A stretch of 57,594 nucleotides of DNA from Armatimonadota bacterium (GCA_012522555.1 JAAYKG010000060.1:1-57594); one strand, 5' to 3'. Shown: positions 2,880 through 47,360, numbered from the stretch's first letter. The notes: a model not told the origin generated them from the letters alone. Translations and numbers: made by a program.

Positions 2880-3146
2880 TTGCCAAATATTAAATCTGTT
2901 GTTAAAGACGTTAAGAAGTCTCGAGAGCGCAGGCTCCGAAACCTCGATACGAGGTCCAAAATCAAGACCTTCGTAAAGAAGACCAAATCGGCGATGGACG
3001 AACAGTCCGATCAGACAGCCGCGTTGCTCAATGAGACTGTGAGCATACTCGATAAGGCCGCCAAGCGTGGGATTATCCATCCTAACGCTGCTGCCCGGCG
3101 CAAGTCCAGGCTTATGAAGCGAATCAACGCTAAGGTCTCCGAATAA
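2880..3146 (+). CDS. rpsT: 30S ribosomal protein S20
   Basis: TTG start. PNIKSVVKDVKKSRERRLRN ... AAKRGIIHPNAAARRKSRL is a typical S20 sequence. 88 aa. Confidence 0.95.
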   Translation: MPNIKSVVKDVKKSRERRLRNLDTRSKIKTFVKKTKSAMDEQSDQTAALLNETVSILDKAAKRGIIHPNAAARRKSRLMKRINAKVSE

Positions 3147-3179
3147 GCCGGCTGCCATAAAGTATACCAGATTTGAACC

Positions 3180-3211
3180 AGAGAGGTAAGCGATGCTGCC
3201 TCTCTTTTCTT
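3180..3211 (+). terminator. rho-independent terminator after rpsT
   Basis: AGAGAGG (3180-3186) pairs with CCTCTCT (3199-3205), followed by TTTCTT. Confidence 0.6.
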
Positions 3212-3247
3212 CGCACATCTGCTGTAGTTTTGCTGGAGGTCGCAGAT

Positions 3248-4150
3248 ATGCTGACGAAAAAACAGGTTATAGACGGTCTGATCGACCTGGGGCTTGAAGC
3301 CGGAGATACGGTAATTGTTCACAGCTCCCTGCGCAGTTTCGGCGAGGTCGACGGCGGCGCGGATACGGTTATCGACGCCATATTAGAGACGATCGGGCCG
3401 GATGGCACTTTGGTTGTGCCGACATTCAACTACGACCCTGGGGTTTTCGACCCCGCAGCCACTCCATCTGTGGTGGGTATGATCACCGAGGCTGTTCGCA
3501 TACGCCCGGAGGCGATTCGCAGCAGCCACCCGACACATTCGGTGGCGGCGATCGGCAGGCTGGCCGAGCAAATCACCGAAGATCATGATAGAGTCGAGGC
3601 GTTTGCGAGAAATTCCGCGCTTCACAAAGCAGCGCGGGTGGGCGGGAAGATTCTCCAGCTCGGAGTCACACAGACCTCTAATTCTTCGATTCACGTAGCC
3701 GAGGAGCTTGCACAGGTTCCATACCTCGACAAACAGCGGCGCGTCGGCATCAAGCTGCGCAGTGGTAAGGTCGTGCACAAATGGGTCCGCAGACCCGGCT
3801 GCAGCCAGGGTTTCGAAGCTATAGACGAATTGCTATACGAACAAGACGCCATAAAAGAGACGATTATAGGCCGGTGTAAAGCCAGGCTGATGGGTGCCAG
3901 AGCCGTGATCGAAGTTGCCGTTGATATGCTTAGAGCCGACCCAGCGGCGCTGCTGTGCGACAGGCCGGAATGTGGGGCCTGCGCGGAGTCGCGGGCGATG
4001 ATTGACGCCACAGCCTCGGAGGAAGAGGAACGCCGCCTTACTGAAATGGCCGAAGAAGAGGAACGTATCCGCAGGCAGACCGAGGAAAAGCTCGCGGGAA
4101 GAGTCAATTTTTATGAAATCGACGGCCAGGACAGGTCCTCATCCAACTAA
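3248..4150 (+). CDS. AAC(3)-family aminoglycoside N-acetyltransferase-like protein with an acidic C-terminal tail
   Basis: VIVHSSLRSFGEVDGGADTVIDAILETIGPDGTLVVPTFNY matches the Antibiotic_NAT/AAC(3) N-terminal signature. Start moved to ATG 3248 because 3180-3211 is the rpsT terminator. Confidence 0.8.
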   Translation: MLTKKQVIDGLIDLGLEAGDTVIVHSSLRSFGEVDGGADTVIDAILETIGPDGTLVVPTFNYDPGVFDPAATPSVVGMITEAVRIRPEAIRSSHPTHSVAAIGRLAEQITEDHDRVEAFARNSALHKAARVGGKILQLGVTQTSNSSIHVAEELAQVPYLDKQRRVGIKLRSGKVVHKWVRRPGCSQGFEAIDELLYEQDAIKETIIGRCKARLMGARAVIEVAVDMLRADPAALLCDRPECGACAESRAMIDATASEEEERRLTEMAEEEERIRRQTEEKLAGRVNFYEIDGQDRSSSN

Positions 4151-24984: not shown

Positions 24985-26133
24985 ATGGGTAGTGAACGGG
25001 CGCACCAACGGGGAACGACTTGGGCCATAATTGCGATCGGCTCACTTGCTGTAATCCTACTGATAGAGCGATTGAAATGGCTGATTGTAATGATCACAGC
25101 CACTGCGGCTCCGTTCTTTGTAGCATTTCTGCTGGCATTCATGTTGAATCCGCTGATGGCCCGACTGGAGAAGAGGGGCTTGTCGAGGGTATGCTCGGTG
25201 GTTGTAACGAGTCTGCTGTTTCTGGCTGTCTTTGCCGTCGGAGTATTCCTGGTGCTGCCGCAATTCGTAACTCAAGGCGCAGATTTCGTGAGCAGCATTC
25301 CAGCATATGCGCGGGCCTTGGAGAAAGGAATTGATAATTTTCTGGTCGGTCAAAAGGCCTTGTTACAGAGAGTTAGCTTACCAACCTCGATTGCTGAATT
25401 AATCAAGCGATTCCCCGACGAGATGCGACAGTTTTCCACCGCAGCTTTGAATGTAATGAGTCATTTCGTGCTAGCTGTAGTGAGTAAAGTGACTTGGCTG
25501 GTGGTTGTGCCTCTTGTTACGGTATGGCTTCTTATCAACTGGAATGCTCAAAGAGAGGCGATTTACAGACAAATCTCTGATGTTCATCGAGAACGATTCG
25601 TTCGTGTAACACAGTGTATTGCGGGGGTATTAAACTCATACGTGAGGGGAACAATTGTGGTAGCTGTGTTATATGGCGTGGTCACAACCGTGATCTTAGG
25701 TTTAATATTTCGTATGCCATATGCACTGATACTGGGACTGATCGCCGGCCTGGTGTCACCGATACCGTATGTCGGCTCGATTATTATATTACTGTCGACA
25801 GGGATCGTAGCCTATGCCACAAATCCTTCGCTCGGGTACGTTGTGGCAGTTATTTCGGCTATGGTAGTTCAGAACAATATCCTGTTCGATAATTTAGTGG
25901 CGCCAAGAGTATTAGGCGGAGCGGTTGGACTCAATCTCCCGTGGAGTCTTTTTGCCCTTATGTTGGGTGGGAGCATGTTCGGCATAGCGGGAATGCTCAT
26001 TGCAGTGCCAGTCGGCGCCACAATTCGGGTAATCATACTCGAATTGATGCCAAAAGCGCCAAAAGCTCAGTCGGATAATAAGCACCCAGAAAGACAAGGA
26101 GGGACCGAGGAGACTATCTCCCACACAACATAA
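24985..26133 (+). CDS. AI-2E family transporter (PerM/UPF0118)
   Basis: Polytopic protein with the typical central loop and a C-terminal PYVGSIIILL ... GGSMFGIAGMLIAVP region. Start at ATG 24985 behind GGGAGG. Confidence 0.88.
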   Translation: MGSERAHQRGTTWAIIAIGSLAVILLIERLKWLIVMITATAAPFFVAFLLAFMLNPLMARLEKRGLSRVCSVVVTSLLFLAVFAVGVFLVLPQFVTQGADFVSSIPAYARALEKGIDNFLVGQKALLQRVSLPTSIAELIKRFPDEMRQFSTAALNVMSHFVLAVVSKVTWLVVVPLVTVWLLINWNAQREAIYRQISDVHRERFVRVTQCIAGVLNSYVRGTIVVAVLYGVVTTVILGLIFRMPYALILGLIAGLVSPIPYVGSIIILLSTGIVAYATNPSLGYVVAVISAMVVQNNILFDNLVAPRVLGGAVGLNLPWSLFALMLGGSMFGIAGMLIAVPVGATIRVIILELMPKAPKAQSDNKHPERQGGTEETISHTT

Positions 26134-26986
26134 TCAACAGTCGCTCGAGATCATCATCAGAGTAATATTCCATCACGATCCGGCCACGGTCTTTAGTCTG
26201 AATAATTGAGACCTTCGTGCCAAATAGCCTCCGCAGTTGCGCCTCAGCTTCCAACAGGTTCGGGTCTTGTTCATCCAAAAATGTTTCACGTGAAACATTC
26301 TCCGTTCCCCTGCTAGCCTCGCCACGATTCCACTCCCGCGCCAGTCTCTCGGCCTCTCTCACTGATAACCCTGCCCCTGTAATCCTCTTGCACAGTTCGA
26401 TTCGTTCAGGCTCACCATCTATTGAAAGTATGGCCCTAGCATGCCCTTCTCCAATTCTTCCTCTTTTGAGCTCAGATTTCACGGGCTCCGGTAAACTTAG
26501 CAGCCTCATGGTGTTAGCAATAGCCGAGCGACTCTTTCCAACCGCAAATGCCAGGCTCTCTTGCGACAGGCCAAACTCTTCTGATAGACGTTTATACGCT
26601 AAGGCGGCATCAATCGCATTAATATCCTCTCGTTGAATGTTTTCAACCAATGCGACTTCAAGGCTTTGCTCGTTAGTCAGTTCCCGAACAACCGACGGTA
26701 TACGCGCTAACCCAGCAGCCTTCGCCGCTCTCAGTCGTCTCTCACCGGCCACCAGTTCGTAGTCGCCATCTCCTTTTGATCGGATGACTATTGGCTGAAG
26801 GATACCATGAACCCGCACTGAGTTTACCAGCTCTTGGAACTTCTCATCACTATATTCGTTGCGCGGTTGGTATGGATTAACGCTAACCTTGGAGATATCA
26901 ACTTCAGAAATCGTCCCTGGCTGCACTTCCTTATCCGCCATCGGGATCAATGCCCCTAATCCTCTACCGAGACCTTTCTTTTCCAA
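26114..26986 (-). CDS. parB: chromosome partitioning protein ParB/Spo0J
   Basis: [13 protein letters not shown]-terminal motif, ParB box ([15 protein letters not shown]) and an HTH. TTG 26986 lies 9 nt after GGAGG; TTG 27007 is an alternative start. Confidence 0.92.
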
Positions 26987-27749
26987 AAGTGGCCACCTCC
27001 GCAGCAAATATCATATAGGCTTCAGCGCCTTTAGATTTCGGATCATAGGAAATTATAGGCTGCCCATGACTAGGAGCCTCACTCAATCAGACATTTCTGG
27101 GGACAAGCACAGGGGACACCCTGGCCCCAAAAAATCGCCTCACCTCATCGACCACCTGCTGAGAAAGATTGGTCCGATAATCGAACATAGTCAGCAACAC
27201 TTTTGCGACCTCAAGGCTGGGGTTCAGGTGCTGGTTCACTAATTCCACAGTCTTTAAAAGCTGGCTGATCCCCTCCAACGCATAATACTCACACTGTATT
27301 GGCAATATCACATACTCAGCCGCGGTAAGCACGTTTACAGTCAACAAGCCCAAAGGTGGCGGACAATCAATCAGAATGAACTCATATCGACCGCTCACTC
27401 TCTCCAGGGCCTGTTTCAGCTTCGTCTCCCGCGACATGGTGGACATCAATTCTATGTCAGCCCCGGCCAGGTCCAGTTTTGCAGGCGCGAGATCTAGCCC
27501 TTGAGTGTCGGTAGAAATTATCACCTGTTCTATGGGAACTTCGTTGATGAGCACGTCATACATGCACATCTTCAACTCCGACTTGATAACCCCCACACCA
27601 CTGGACGCATTCCCCTGCGGATCAATATCGACAAGTAATGTTCTTTCATCCTGGGCTGCCAAGCACGCCGCCACATTGACGGCAGTGGTCGTCTTTCCGA
27701 CACCACCCTTTTGATTTACAACAGCAAAAATCGATGCCATTCCTATCAC
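26964..27749 (-). pseudogene. parA: ParA/Soj partition ATPase interrupted by an in-frame TGA (27087-27089)
   Basis: Deviant Walker A (NQKGGVGKTTT). The ORF stops after ...VLVPRNV, but the same frame continues [40 protein letters not shown], which is the normal ParA C-terminus. The TGA replaces the conserved Arg of PRNVRLSEAPS. Confidence 0.85.
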
Positions 27750-27843: not shown

Positions 27844-28149
27844 CTATCTTATTTTGTCCGCAGCGCGCCTCCGGAGCATCATATCTGCAATTTCAGCACC
27901 GCTAACATTGTAGTCTCCCTTGGCAATTCGGTCCTTGATTTCCATAACGACCTCGTCCCTTGTTTCCGGCACATCTCTTAGCGCTGCCTCAGCCACAACC
28001 ATGCCCTGTTCCAACGGAGATAGCGACTGCGTGCTGTTGGTTGTTTGGCTCGATACTAGCCCCTTGGGTCGATTCTTCGGGAGAATCTTCTCTTGTGCTG
28101 CTCCCTGATTTACACAGGCCTTATTGGATTCGACGCCCGATATCTTCAT
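27844..28149 (-). CDS. flgM: anti-sigma-28 factor FlgM
   Basis: 101 aa with a disordered N-terminal half. The C-terminus EIKDRIAKGDYNVSGAEIADMML matches the FlgM family. GAGGAGG SD present. Confidence 0.8.
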   Translation of the reverse strand: MKISGVESNKACVNQGAAQEKILPKNRPKGLVSSQTTNSTQSLSPLEQGMVVAEAALRDVPETRDEVVMEIKDRIAKGDYNVSGAEIADMMLRRRAADKIR

Positions 28150-28242: not shown

Positions 28243-28330
28243 AGAACGGCAGCCCGGCCGACATACACGTCTTCGTGTTTAGCCCCGTGGCTTTGCGTCC
28301 CCTTCTTTCGAAGAGTTTGCCTTTATCATT
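28243..28330 (-). promoter_or_regulatory. c-di-GMP-I (GEMM-I) riboswitch aptamer in the flgM leader
   Basis: The minus strand reads AAAGGCAAACUCUUC-GAAA-GAAGGGGACGCAAAGCCACGGGGCUAAACACG-AAGA-CGUGUAUGUCGGCCGGGCUGCCG. It has a GCAAAC segment, a GAAA-capped hairpin, the near-invariant GGGACGCAAAGCC junction, a second hairpin and a GC-rich 3' strand. A paralogue lies at 44262. Confidence 0.8.
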
Positions 28331-28350
28331 TGATTAATCTCTATTCTTTG

Positions 28351-44171: not shown

Positions 44172-44261
44172 CTTGCATCCCCCTATTCATCGACCAATTT
44201 CCCGTATTCCTCACAGGCTGGCCCGCCGCCCGGTGTGGCATAAGCTATATGAAGATCAACC

Positions 44262-44352
44262 GACAATCGCAAACCCTGGGAAACCAGGGGACGCAAAGCT
44301 ATAGGGGCTAAATTCCGACGATACGTCGGGACAAGTCTGCCAGGCTGCCGAA
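44262..44352 (+). promoter_or_regulatory. c-di-GMP-I (GEMM-I) riboswitch aptamer upstream of the HD-GYP/GAF/GGDEF operon
   Basis: CGCAAACCCUGG-GAAA-CCAGGGGACGCAAAGCUAUAGGGGCUAAAUUCCGACG-AUA-CGUCGGGACAAGUCUGCCAGGCUGCCG. It shares the core GGGGACGCAAAGC..GGGGCUAAA...GGCUGCCG with the flgM-leader copy. Confidence 0.8.
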
Positions 44353-44437
44353 GTTGATGCGTGTTTTCACCCGAATAATTCATTACAGGCATACGGGATG
44401 AAAATGCGTGGTCTGCTGCGGCAGCCTGGCAGTTTTA
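44337..44437 (+). promoter_or_regulatory. candidate riboswitch expression platform (anti-aptamer / terminator-like helix)
   Basis: CGGCAGCCUGGCAG (44419-44432) is the perfect reverse complement of the aptamer 3' strand CUGCCAGGCUGCCG (44337-44350) and is followed by UUUUA. Confidence 0.4.
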
Positions 44438-44589
44438 CGCCAGGACGCATTTATTCTCGCAGATTGGCGGAAGCCTGCCGGAATGGAATCCGATGTCACT
44501 TTTGTCGATGATGAAGTTTTTATCGATTGGCTCGAAGTATCTGTTTTGCGCGAGGAGCCCGCGCTGCCACATAGAAGGGCAGATGCAAT

Positions 44590-46443
44590 ATGAGAAATGG
44601 GCGCAAAATCTTGTTTTGCTTTATAACGGGGCTGGCGGCGTCGATGTTGGGGCTGATGTTTTGGAGCCGTTGTCCTGTGGCTGGGTGGAGCTTTCTCATC
44701 GCTGCGCCGTGGCTGATGTTTGCGTGGATACTTTTTTTACATCGAGATACCTCGTCCGAATGTGTGGTAAGGCTTGCGGCGGCTGATAGTCTGTCGGAGG
44801 CGTATCGCCGCGCCACAGTAGCCCTTGCGTCGGCTATTGGCGCCAAAGATTCCTACATTCATCCCTGTGTGAACCGTGTGCCGCGAATATGTGAGCTTAT
44901 CGCCGATCACATCGATCTGGACCATGATGCTGTGGAGAAGCTCAAGCTCGCCGCACTGATAAGAGATGTCGGCAAATTGGGAGTGCCGGATCATATTTTG
45001 CTTAAGCCAGGCCCGCTGGACGCCGAAGAGTTCGCCAAGATGCGCAACCATGCCGCTATCGGCGCCGATTTGCTGCGCCAGGCCGATTTGCCGGATGATG
45101 TCGTGGATATGGTGCTTTACCATCACGAAAAGTACGACGGCACCGGTTACCCTGAGCGGCTGGCGGCGAATGATATCCCTTTGGGGTCGCGGATAATCTC
45201 AGTTGCGGTGGTGTATGATGCATTGATATCCGACAGGTGCTATCGAAGTGGCTGGACGCATTCCGACGCGATTTCCCATATACAGGAGCTTTCCGGCGCA
45301 GCATTCGACCCGGCGGTCGTCGATGCGTTTTTTGCCGTTGAGTCGCAGATTTTGGAATTGGGGGCGGAGCTTGCACGCGATATGAAGTCGCAAGTGAACG
45401 GGAGTGCCGAGGTCAGTTGCGCCGCGGTGGACACAATCGCCCAGGCCAATCGGGAACTGATATCACTATTTGAGATCACCCAGACTCTATCCAGCACCCT
45501 GGAGATCGATGAGGTGCTGGCGTTGTTGGCCAACAGGACACGCAGGCTCGTGCAAGGTTCGACGTGTGTGGTATTGATGGTTGACAAAACACATTCTAAA
45601 TCTCTCATCGCCAAAACGGCGGTCGGCCGGTTTGAAGAGATGTTTGTCGGAGCACGGGCAAGATACGGCAAGGGAATCACCGGCCGCGCCGCTCAAAAGG
45701 CCCAACCACGGGCCGGGCACTACGACCCTGATGATCTTGTATTTAACTATAGCGAAACTCCTCCCGAGCTGGATTTCAAATCTTGCCTGGCCGTGCCGAT
45801 AGTAAGCTACGGAGACGTGCTCGGCACAATTAATCTATATGATGTCTGCCGAAGATCGTTTACCGAAGATGAGATGCGAGTGCTGACGTTTATTGCCCAT
45901 CAGGCAGCCCTGGCTGTACATAACGCGCGGGCCTTTGAAGAGGCTCGAGATTTCGCCTTGCGCGATCCGCTGACTAATCTGCGCAACGGTCGATTCCTGC
46001 GGCATTATCTGGACAGGGAGCTGAATCGCAGCTTCAGGTTCGATGAGCCTCTGTCGGTGTTGGGTATCGATTTGGACAATTTCAAGGGTGTAAATGATTT
46101 GAAAGGGCACGAAGCCGGAGACAGGGTGCTTAAGGATGTGGCGGATATATTCAGACGTGAGCTTCGGGATTATGATGTAATCGTGCGTAACGGCGGGGAC
46201 GAATTTGTAGCGGTGCTTCCTGAGACCGGTTATTCGGAGGCGAAGCGCACTGCACAGAGGATTCAATCGGCGATTGAGAACTATGCTCGCACGAAGGTCA
46301 ACGATGTGCCTCGCTTTGGGGTGAGCGTGGGGGTTGCGTCGTATCCGGCTGATGGAACTGATGCGAGCGCCCTGCTAGCCTCCGCGGATGCGGCTATGTA
46401 TGCCGACAAACGATCTCGGAATCTACTTCGCAAGGCTGCTTAG
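44590..46443 (+). CDS. membrane-anchored HD-GYP phosphodiesterase / GAF / GGDEF diguanylate cyclase multidomain protein
   Basis: Two N-terminal TM helices. HD-GYP domain (IRDVGKLGVPD...YHHEKYDGTGYPERL), a GAF-like region, and a GGDEF domain with intact RNGGDEF plus an RDYD I-site 5 residues upstream. Confidence 0.9.
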   Translation: MRNGRKILFCFITGLAASMLGLMFWSRCPVAGWSFLIAAPWLMFAWILFLHRDTSSECVVRLAAADSLSEAYRRATVALASAIGAKDSYIHPCVNRVPRICELIADHIDLDHDAVEKLKLAALIRDVGKLGVPDHILLKPGPLDAEEFAKMRNHAAIGADLLRQADLPDDVVDMVLYHHEKYDGTGYPERLAANDIPLGSRIISVAVVYDALISDRCYRSGWTHSDAISHIQELSGAAFDPAVVDAFFAVESQILELGAELARDMKSQVNGSAEVSCAAVDTIAQANRELISLFEITQTLSSTLEIDEVLALLANRTRRLVQGSTCVVLMVDKTHSKSLIAKTAVGRFEEMFVGARARYGKGITGRAAQKAQPRAGHYDPDDLVFNYSETPPELDFKSCLAVPIVSYGDVLGTINLYDVCRRSFTEDEMRVLTFIAHQAALAVHNARAFEEARDFALRDPLTNLRNGRFLRHYLDRELNRSFRFDEPLSVLGIDLDNFKGVNDLKGHEAGDRVLKDVADIFRRELRDYDVIVRNGGDEFVAVLPETGYSEAKRTAQRIQSAIENYARTKVNDVPRFGVSVGVASYPADGTDASALLASADAAMYADKRSRNLLRKAA

Positions 46444-46454
46444 GAGTGTTGAGT

Positions 46455-46643
46455 ATGGACAACAAATGCTGTCGTGCTTATGGCTGTCCAGCGAGCTTTT
46501 ATATGAACTGCCGAGCTTATAATGAAAATCGAAACTGTTGGGAAGTTGACCGTAAGCCCTGCTGCCGAAATACACAATTGTCGGTCTGCTGCGAATGTGA
46601 GGTATATAGTAAGTGTATGCGCGGGCTTGTGCAGGGAGTATGA
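46455..46643 (+). CDS. 62-aa cysteine-rich miniprotein (11 Cys; NCWE motif)
   Basis: ATG 46455 lies 8 nt after AGGAG, which overlaps the upstream stop. Tightly packed between two GGDEF-type genes (3-nt gap to the next gene). Reads MDNKCCRAYGCPASFYMNCRAYNENRNCWEVDRKPCCRNTQLSVCCECEVYSKC. Confidence 0.6.
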   Translation: MDNKCCRAYGCPASFYMNCRAYNENRNCWEVDRKPCCRNTQLSVCCECEVYSKCMRGLVQGV

Positions 46644-46646
46644 ATT

Positions 46647-47360
46647 ATGGCTCGAATATTTATGTTTGCATCATGGGCGGCGGCAGCCTCGCTGGCCGGG
46701 ATTGCCGTCGTTAGCACGGATATCAAATGGCGTGTGGCTGCCGTGATTCTAGCTGGTTTGGTTGTTTTGCCGAGCCTGTTGATCGCATTCCGGTCTATAG
46801 CTGCCCGCGAACCATCGCAAGAAACTCAGCCGATACGGCAAACCGAAGCGTCATCAAATGAACAGCAGACCGGGGTATATATGGACCCGTTGACCGGGTT
46901 AGCTACCAGGCATTATTTGACGATGTTTCTGAATCGAGAGATCAGCCGATGCAAGAGATCCGGCGCGGAATTAAGCCTGGCGATATTTGACTTTCCGGAT
47001 TTGTCGAAGGTCGAGGAGCAATCGGCCCTTACGGCTATGGCTGATGTCGGTGCGAAGATGAAATCTATGCTTCGAGACTACGATCTGGTGGCGTTATTCT
47101 CATTAGGCCGCCTCGCTATCGTGCTGCCGGAGACGAACGTGTCGAAGTCGCTGGAGATTGTCGAAAGGCTGCATCAACTGGCGACCGGCGTCTGTGCGGA
47201 CGACAAGCCGCTCACCGCCACAGCCGGCCTGGCATCATTCCCCACTCATGGCGACACCTCGGAATGGCTGATCACCTCCGCCCACCGAGCGCTGAACCAG
47301 TGCAGAGCGGGTTCATCAAAAGACGTCCACGTGCTTGAGAACTATCAACTCGCGGGCTGA
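46647..47360 (+). CDS. membrane-anchored degenerate GGDEF-domain protein (GGDEF replaced by SLGRL; RxxD I-site retained)
   Basis: Two TM helices, then DPLTGLATRHYL...LRDYDLVALFSLGRLAIVLPETN...AGLASFP. The fold is conserved, the active-site residues are lost, and RDYD is kept. Confidence 0.8.
   Translation: MARIFMFASWAAAASLAGIAVVSTDIKWRVAAVILAGLVVLPSLLIAFRSIAAREPSQETQPIRQTEASSNEQQTGVYMDPLTGLATRHYLTMFLNREISRCKRSGAELSLAIFDFPDLSKVEEQSALTAMADVGAKMKSMLRDYDLVALFSLGRLAIVLPETNVSKSLEIVERLHQLATGVCADDKPLTATAGLASFPTHGDTSEWLITSAHRALNQCRAGSSKDVHVLENYQLAG

Follow-up and report, generated by a model that had tools for sequence, protein, structure and literature searches.

A c-di-GMP riboswitch operon of uncultured Armatimonadota with a probable cyclase, an unannotated cysteine-rich miniprotein, and a predicted degenerate GGDEF receptor

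Can an operon that stands behind a cyclic di-guanosine monophosphate (c-di-GMP) riboswitch make, degrade, and bind the very molecule that controls it? The question is raised by a locus in a 57,594-nucleotide stretch of DNA from an Armatimonadota bacterium (GCA_012522555.1, JAAYKG010000060.1:1-57594; this whole stretch is called the window below). There, a GEMM-I aptamer precedes a gene with HD-GYP, GAF, and GGDEF domains (gene 1), a gene for a miniprotein with 11 cysteines (gene 2), and a degenerate GGDEF gene (gene 3). An initial annotation had read the three as a unit able to make, degrade, and probably bind c-di-GMP. We find that the operon recurs in related uncultured genomes, and that gene 1 has lost residues that an HD-GYP phosphodiesterase needs. 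We lean modestly toward a lineage-specific (Armatimonadota-type) c-di-GMP operon under an ON riboswitch, which would supply a cyclase, a cofactor subunit, and a receptor. The features of the locus are as follows.

44258..44352, + strand: c-di-GMP-I (GEMM-I) riboswitch aptamer, from a covariance match to RF01051
44337..44436, + strand: terminator-like hairpin of the expression platform, from the minimum free energy fold, the leaders of relatives, and covariation
44483..44593, + strand: possible upstream open reading frame (ORF) of 36 amino acids, called as a gene in same-species assemblies; status uncertain
44590..46443, + strand: gene 1, 617 amino acids, two transmembrane segments plus degenerate HD-GYP, GAF, and GGDEF, from Pfam, alignments, and hydropathy
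46455..46643, + strand: gene 2, cysteine-rich miniprotein of 62 amino acids, predicted to be cytoplasmic, from an unannotated family; orthologues and codon-position bias
46647..47360, + strand: gene 3, 237 amino acids, two transmembrane segments plus degenerate GGDEF, from Pfam, motif alignment, and orthologues

The layout of the operon is largely as first described. The aptamer, initially placed at 44262-44352, is matched by RF01051 over 44258-44352 above the gathering score, and the three tightly packed genes behind it lie essentially where the initial annotation had put them. Gene 2 does encode 62 amino acids with 11 cysteines, and its Shine-Dalgarno sequence (AGGAG, 46442-46446) overlaps the TAG stop codon of gene 1 (46441-46443); the ATG of gene 3 stands 3 nucleotides past the stop codon of gene 2. 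Our analysis adds an RD dyad in the HD-GYP domain, a C at a ligand-contacting position of the aptamer, a leader of 237 nucleotides between aptamer and gene 1 that contains a small upstream ORF as well as a long hairpin, and a miniprotein family that spans several phyla.

Recurrence of the triplet in relatives had been put forward as a check on the operon, and we found it in at least 10 related uncultured genomes or contigs, mostly labelled Armatimonadota, nine of which also have the riboswitch. On contigs with gene 3 orthologues, the order is riboswitch, HD_5-GAF-GGDEF gene, uncalled small ORF, and degenerate GGDEF gene, and the uncalled ORF is the miniprotein, with 53 to 61% identity to gene 2. 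The gene 3 orthologues P0002-P0004 are 47 to 50% identical and share the gene order. Full triplets came from a scan of GTDB species representatives (L012, L021, L025, L038, L042, and L061; L numbers designate loci), which also yielded a gene of the gene 1 type with the miniprotein (L062) and a miniprotein followed by an HD_5-GAF-GGDEF gene (L060). Where these loci have a taxon label, it is Armatimonadota. The orthologous operons of L001, L002/3, L004, L012, L021, L025, L042, and L061 are likewise preceded by an RF01051 aptamer. A second arrangement, seen in other Armatimonadota loci, has the miniprotein first after a c-di-GMP-I aptamer (L014, L017, and L047); L033 and L060 are also miniprotein-first, and the gene that comes next is the degenerate GGDEF gene in L017, L047, and L033. 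The miniprotein is the most constant protein of the Armatimonadota riboswitch units. Because the riboswitch and the gene order recur in related contigs, and gene 2 shows a codon-position bias, we do not regard the operon as a product of chance.

In L033 and L060, the aptamer ahead of the miniprotein is the RF03167 c-di-GMP-I-GGC variant (L033:5414-5509, + strand; L060:6612-6709, - strand), which scores 68 to 74 bits and beats RF01051 there. We know of no settled ligand for this variant class.

Whether the unit can degrade c-di-GMP depends on gene 1. Pfam assigns it HD_5 (PF13487) at residues 85-243 (E 1.2e-33), GAF_2 at 304-444 (E 1.1e-17), and GGDEF (PF00990) at 456-609 (E 2.4e-39), and hydropathy gives N-terminal hydrophobic segments at 6-26 and 30-51. 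The cyclase motifs are complete: GGDEF is intact, the D-x-D/N/GH-x-x-D residues are present, RDYD stands 5 residues upstream, and GIDLDNFKGVNDLKGHEAGD ... RDYDVIVRNGGDEF aligns with PleD. The anchored HD-GYP/GAF/GGDEF architecture and the intact GGDEF of the initial annotation thus hold, but its phosphodiesterase is not supported. Aligned to the PmGH structure 4MCW (E 6.8e-34), the HD-GYP domain has RD as its HD dyad (H221 to R, in PmGH numbering) and Cys as the equivalent of H189, so that five of the seven metal ligands are left. Residues D222, H250, H276, H277, D305, D183, and K225 are kept, as is GYP (HHEKYDGTGYP). The equivalent of E185 is Tyr, which is normal for the Y/F subfamily of HD-GYP proteins (PMC4159591).

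The window has the RD dyad in common with all seven loci of its clade (L001-L005, L012, and L042), and the H189 position drifts within the clade between C, Y, H, and Q. In PmGH, H189A and H221A each abolish phosphodiesterase activity (PMC4159591). Degradation of c-di-GMP by gene 1 is therefore unlikely, because two metal-ligand histidines are lost and the corresponding alanine mutants of PmGH are inactive, and the claim that the unit can make, degrade, and bind the messenger lacks support in that form. We accordingly rate as unlikely a complete homeostasis unit in which gene 1 makes and hydrolyses c-di-GMP, gene 3 binds it, and the riboswitch closes a negative-feedback loop. The strong Pfam scores of both GGDEF and HD_5 speak for such a unit, as do the five retained ligands with D183, K225, and GYP, and the complete H..HD..H..HH..D set of sister clades with equal HD_5-GAF-GGDEF architecture (L021, L025, L038, L060, L061, and L062). 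It is opposed by the clade-wide RD dyad, by the relaxed constraint that the variable H189 position points to, and by the inactive PmGH mutants. Since the sister clades keep the complete ligand set, the ancestral gene 1 protein was probably bifunctional.

Instead of a make-and-break enzyme, gene 1 probably encodes a diguanylate cyclase only, regulated through its I-site, and the HD-GYP remnant with its intact GYP motif is probably a docking or regulatory domain. Mutations of GYP leave PmGH catalysis in place, and the motif is required for HD-GYP::GGDEF complexes (PMC4159591). Compared with the phosphodiesterases of known structure (PmGH 4MCW, PA4781 4R8Z, and V-cGAP3 5Z7C), gene 1 has the HD_5 fold, the Y/F subfamily signature, GYP, and five ligands in common. 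It differs in its RD dyad and in the Cys at H189, with which it fails the definition of the catalytic site, as well as in its membrane anchor and its fusion, via GAF, to an active-looking GGDEF domain. The partnership of HD-GYP and GGDEF within gene 1 is reminiscent of the GYP-dependent pairing in RpfG::GGDEF complexes (PMC4159591).

Binding, the last of the three proposed activities, is assigned to gene 3. This gene has hydrophobic segments at 4-23 and 26-53 (hydropathy) and a GGDEF domain (PF00990) at 78-221 (E 4.2e-15), in which, as first noticed, SLGRL has replaced GGDEF and RDYD is retained 5 residues upstream. None of its orthologues has kept GG[DE]EF or the upstream N/GH residues, and R[DE]YD is present in every one; the motifs found in gene 3-type proteins elsewhere are AASRL, AGGRL, APGRL, SPTRL, SASRL, KDDEF, KDDMF, and SSDEF. 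PelD and PopA are degenerate GGDEF proteins that act as c-di-GMP receptors, binding the ligand via the RxxD I-site. Gene 3 resembles receptors of this type in its GGDEF fold, in the loss of the active-site motif, and in the strict conservation of RxxD, and differs in its minimal build (two transmembrane segments plus GGDEF in 237 amino acids, with no recognisable output domain) and in always following the miniprotein. We predict that it is a c-di-GMP receptor through its I-site and not an enzyme.

What, then, is the miniprotein that sits between the two? Gene 2 is a real gene, as the initial annotation had it: substitutions among six orthologues fall on codon positions 1:2:3 in the ratio 166:232:413, a skew that indicates purifying selection. 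The orthologues with 53 to 61% identity are those in L001, L002, L004, L012, and L042. The conserved cysteines of gene 2 are C5, C11, C19, C28, C36/37, C45, and C48, with CWE at 28-30. Gene callers skipped the ORF in every public assembly examined (L063-L070 and L001-L005), which explains why a word-index homologue search with the miniprotein found no relatives. The list from an exhaustive phmmer search has 51 cluster representatives, including two repetitive false positives (P0059 and P0080), and a profile search added 48 proteins of 59 to 100 amino acids, all "hypothetical," without a Pfam domain, and without fusions. Across the family, C5, C11, Y16, C19, C28, and C48 are invariant and P12, A13, W29, E30, C37, and C45 nearly so, giving a core motif of C-x5-7-C-P-A-S-x-Y-x2-C-x8-C-W-E-x5-C-C-x7-C-x2-C with seven to eight conserved cysteines. 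The miniprotein presumably binds a metal or an iron-sulfur (Fe-S) cluster.

Known families offer little guidance. The window miniprotein had no Pfam or NCBIfam match up to E 10, and a profile search of the PDB returned one chance match (E 1.9). The AlphaFold2 model is compact and all-helical, with a predicted local distance difference test score of 83. NCBIfam NF045718, the "two-CW domain," matched 8 of 46 family members weakly (best E 0.0012), and our literature search found no mention of that term. The likeness lies in a short cysteine-rich module with CW(E) motifs, of which many family members have two (CWE...NCWE). The window miniprotein, in contrast, has just the second CW (C28-W29), and its relatives are stand-alone proteins; it did not come out as a member of NF045718 and is at most a distant relative of the two-CW domain. 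By eye, a miniprotein-like module at L034:714-1352 (- strand), in a metagenome-assembled genome (MAG) labelled Patescibacteria, is apparently fused to a C-terminal region of ~150 amino acids that resembles a FabZ dehydratase.

A small and very cysteine-rich protein might also be the precursor of a ribosomally synthesized and posttranslationally modified peptide (RiPP), or a secreted disulfide-rich peptide, with its position beside signalling genes being incidental. Radical SAM and Fer4_12 domains do occur in 2 of 53 downstream neighbours of the family. We nevertheless hold this to be very improbable: the miniprotein has no signal peptide and no hydrophobic segment, conservation runs across the whole 50-residue core with no split into leader and core, no maturase, protease, or exporter was found in the window operon or in orthologous operons, and the commonest neighbour is a GAF/HD-GYP domain, which is cytoplasmic. 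The weak similarity to the two-CW domain family points the same way. A RiPP/SCIFF-type or secreted-peptide identity was rejected for want of an adjacent maturase and of a leader-core organization.

The neighbourhood of the family is more informative than its fold. A degenerate DNA pattern for CPASxY[LM]xC-x8-CWE, built by hand and validated on the window and its related loci, gave 57 loci in GTDB species representatives, all of them MAGs, and 73 loci in JGI metagenomes. About 35 to 40% of these 130 loci have an immediate GAF/HD-GYP neighbour. Among upstream ORFs of at least 150 amino acids, HD_5 was present in 22 of 37 scorable genome loci, accompanied by GAF in 20 of the 22, by GGDEF in 10, and by HisKA_7TM in 6. 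Downstream, HD_5 appeared in 2 further loci and GGDEF in 11 of 53 ORFs. In the JGI scan, a same-strand HD-GYP lay within 1.2 kilobases in 19 of 73 loci, or in 13 of 37 when the count is limited to loci whose upstream sequence is long enough. The miniproteins with HD-GYP partners come from Armatimonadota, Nitrospira/Nitrospirota, Desantisbacteria, Brocadiaceae, and unclassified MAGs, and stand-alone HD-GYP partners in other phyla keep all histidine ligands.

We offer, tentatively and at somewhat less than even confidence, the idea that the family may be an unrecognised metal or Fe-S accessory subunit of GAF/HD-GYP proteins, which would supply or sense redox or metal status for the iron centre of the phosphodiesterase across several phyla. 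In Armatimonadota, it would be the constant core of c-di-GMP-riboswitch operons, and it would have gone unseen because gene callers skip it. About 60% of the family, in particular the Actinomycetota subfamily, have no HD-GYP neighbour, and for this reason the family cannot be dedicated to c-di-GMP signalling and must be broader.

Other features of the family stand beside these. Members of the Actinomycetota subfamily (CWDLKGCPASHYMNC...CWE...GCLC) carry two CW motifs and lack c-di-GMP neighbours (L013, L018, L020, L027, L035, L039, L055, L057, L058, and others). With all loci pooled, family-wide neighbour counts include Acetyltransf_6 (5), Metalloenzyme (3), Proton_antipo_M (3), and DUF2085 (3). 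In L007, from a Nitrospira sp., a gene with seven-transmembrane, GAF, and HD-GYP regions and the miniprotein are followed by a gene for a T2SSE-type secretion or pilus ATPase (2953-4029, - strand); T2SSE was found in 4 of 53 downstream ORFs of the family.

If gene 1 makes c-di-GMP, does the riboswitch still read it? The aptamer matches RF01051 over the full length of the model (1-87 of 87) with 64.8 bits, against a gathering score of 35, and an E of 1.9e-10. However, the canonical contact set G20/A47/C92 is incomplete: the equivalents of A47 (ACGCAAAG) and C92 (GCUGCCGAA) are present, and that of Vc2 G20 is a C (44268). This position is column 11 of the RF01051 model, the unpaired base just 5' of P1. 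All 14 related aptamers that we compared (13 from relatives plus a second c-di-GMP-I aptamer of the window) have G there. We ruled out a sequencing error, since the same C occurs in eight further same-species assemblies (L063-L070) that differ elsewhere by single-nucleotide polymorphisms (SNPs). Membership of the c-di-GMP-I fold class stands, and ligand specificity cannot be assumed from it.

In Vc2, G20 recognises one guanine of the ligand at its Hoogsteen face, and the G20A variant is bispecific, binding c-di-GMP at 53 nM and cyclic GMP-AMP (cGAMP) at 120 nM, with A20 protonated (PMC6140456). For G20C variants, we found no reported data. The change from G to C could thus leave the riboswitch impaired or shifted in ligand, toward another cyclic dinucleotide or toward c-di-GMP just at high concentration, and the operon would then not be under simple c-di-GMP autoregulation. 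We rate this as distinctly unlikely. It would account for a C that is fixed in the further assemblies where the related aptamers have G, and for the role of G20 as a ligand contact whose change to A opens the pocket to cGAMP. But apart from this base the aptamer is intact and conserved, the equivalents of A47 and C92 included, as is the platform, and the controlled genes are c-di-GMP genes. By analogy with C+.G-C triples and with protonated A20, moreover, a protonated C20 could still pair with the Hoogsteen edge of the guanine.

The direction of the switch can be read from the leader. Its minimum free energy fold (z = -4.6) contains a hairpin of ~95 nucleotides in total, whose 5' arm is the 3' strand of the aptamer itself (CUGCCAGGCUGCCG, 44337-44350) and whose 3' arm is CGGCAGCCUGGCAG (44419-44432), with UUUU directly 3' of it (44433-44436). 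Sharing a strand, hairpin and aptamer cannot coexist. An equivalent hairpin is present in 13 related leaders, with variable inner stems, and a U-rich run follows it directly in 9 of the 13, reaching U7-9 in L017, L047, and L033. RNAalifold found compensatory changes in 6 of 18 pairs, and the covariation reaches the aptamer strand, where column 12 and column 105 change together from C-G to U-A in L017 and L047. A terminator that takes a strand away from the aptamer implies an ON switch, and this is the most likely mode of action of the riboswitch. A simple terminator scan did not pick up the hairpin, whose stem and loop exceed the limits of that scan, and a permissive Rfam scan of the leader gave the aptamer alone, plus meaningless matches of miRNA hairpins to the platform.

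The long hairpin could also be an anti-sequestor or an RNA-stability element, and the switch could be translational, for instance through a leader ORF, or OFF. For such a role speak the U-tract, which is weak in the window (just UUUU), is UUCU in the eight further assemblies (T to C at 44435), and has no counterpart after the hairpin in L001, L002, and L004, together with a small ORF with a GGGGG-AUG start 6 to 15 nucleotides past the hairpin in most relatives, and a loop motif, described below, that could compete for the 3' arm. The U-rich runs of the other leaders argue against it, as does the outcome that no conserved alternative terminator was found further downstream. On balance, this alternative appears unlikely, about as much so as the homeostasis unit, and an ON switch remains our preferred reading.

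Within the hairpin loop, the motif GGGCUGCAGG occurs in 10 of 13 leaders (e.g., L001:5534-5637, L002:4966-5067, L042:1541-1644, and L017:1629-1735). L004 carries UGGCUGCAGG instead, and neither the window nor L012 has the motif. The core of the motif, GGCUGC, repeats the aptamer's 3' strand and could be a rival partner for the 3' arm, a hint that the switch is more elaborate. Several SNPs among the eight further assemblies also fall in the hairpin loop.

The small ORF that follows the hairpin is of uncertain coding status. In the window, only the version of 36 amino acids has an ATG; its TGA overlaps the ATG of gene 1 (ATGA), the frame is open from a GTG at 44408, and the 36-residue ORF is called as a gene in the eight same-species assemblies. 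At the equivalent site, L001, L002, L012, L042, L021, L025, and L061 have an ORF of ~61 amino acids with the motifs MFxxFYDPRE and T.EQLLFLLED. Leader ORF coordinates are 44408-44593 in the window, L001:5662-5847, L002:5093-5281, L012:2865-3050, and L042:1668-1853. Codon-position differences are 11:18:24 between L012 and L042 and flat between L001 and L002, a weak bias, and the frame is broken in L004.

How might these parts work together? Without ligand, the 3' strand of the aptamer would pair with its downstream complement to form the long terminator-type hairpin; with c-di-GMP bound, the strand would be held in the aptamer and transcription would read through. Gene 1, anchored in the membrane, would add c-di-GMP until its own I-site limits synthesis. 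The miniprotein would most likely bind a metal or Fe-S cluster through about eight cysteines, form a complex with the GAF/HD-GYP part of gene 1, and relay redox or metal status; HD-GYP enzymes with an iron centre can be redox-gated, as in Bhr-HD-GYP (PMC9388753). Gene 3, predicted to be catalytically dead, would bind c-di-GMP at RxxD and serve as a membrane receptor or output, and it might dock on gene 1 at the GYP loop, in the way that GGDEF proteins dock on RpfG (PMC4159591). In sum, c-di-GMP would switch on a cyclase together with a cofactor subunit and a receptor, which makes a feed-forward commitment circuit with product inhibition as its cap. In the sister clades with intact HD-GYP, this cassette would act as a genuine make-and-break homeostat.

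Several observations temper this proposal. The R and C substitutions of gene 1 differ from the alanine mutants tested in PmGH, so that residual or altered hydrolysis is possible, and constraint still acts on the five remaining metal ligands and on the GYP motif. With C at position 20, the aptamer may bind more weakly or choose its ligand differently. Given the short U-tract, the efficiency of termination, and even the mechanism, is uncertain in the window species. The cysteine pattern is the sole pointer to metal binding by the miniprotein, a Foldseek search of the PDB with its model gave 0 matches, and the majority of its family lacks an HD-GYP neighbour. Furthermore, the relatives of the operon are all uncultured MAGs.

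The initial annotation knew of no described system with the composition of this operon. The fixed cassette with its miniprotein is new, but riboswitch control of GGDEF and HD-GYP genes as such is known. GEMM RNAs ahead of HD-GYP and GGDEF genes were already listed when the motif was first described (Weinberg 2007, PMC1950547; PMC3971182), and c-di-GMP-I riboswitches upstream of GGDEF, EAL, and HD-GYP genes are attributed to Sudarsan 2008 in PMC3971182. Like other GEMM-I systems, the operon has the RF01051 fold and puts the genes of a second messenger's turnover under that messenger. Unlike them, it is a fixed three-gene cassette with an unannotated cysteine-rich miniprotein, has C at the G20 contact, and carries a very long, conserved platform built on the aptamer 3' strand. 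Bhr-HD-GYP (PMC9388753) shares the idea of coupling HD-GYP activity to a metal or redox module; there, the module is a fused hemerythrin domain, whereas in this operon the putative metal module stands alone as a small protein and the partner HD-GYP is degenerate. Thus, riboswitch-controlled c-di-GMP genes and composite or degenerate c-di-GMP domains are known already. What is new is the fixed cassette, the C20 aptamer, the conserved long platform, and above all the miniprotein family with its multi-phylum GAF/HD-GYP association.

Networks of c-di-GMP are usually made up of cyclases, phosphodiesterases, and receptors, plus riboswitches. The miniprotein is a candidate for a fourth part; it accompanies HD-GYP proteins in at least four phyla, and annotations miss it systematically. 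Should it prove to be a metal or redox subunit, it would give a handle on the activation or gating of iron-dependent HD-GYP enzymes in vivo. In addition, the cassette forms a natural evolutionary series, with HD-GYP intact or degenerate, enzyme-first or miniprotein-first, and G20 or C20, which could show a make-and-break module turning feed-forward, all of this inferred from the sequences of uncultured bacteria.

The flanks of the operon are unrelated to it: a CNNM/CBS/CorC gene lies upstream, and a convergent HATPase_c_2 gene downstream. Elsewhere in the window, the second c-di-GMP-I aptamer (28245-28331, - strand) scores higher than the first, at 88.2 bits, and has the canonical G20. Directly downstream of it is an ORF of 101 amino acids for the anti-sigma-28 factor FlgM (27844-28149, - strand; Pfam FlgM, E 4e-11), followed, by eye, by ParA-like (27087-27749) and ParB-like (26114-27007) ORFs. 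With this aptamer ahead of FlgM, c-di-GMP would also gate flagellar sigma-factor control in this genome.

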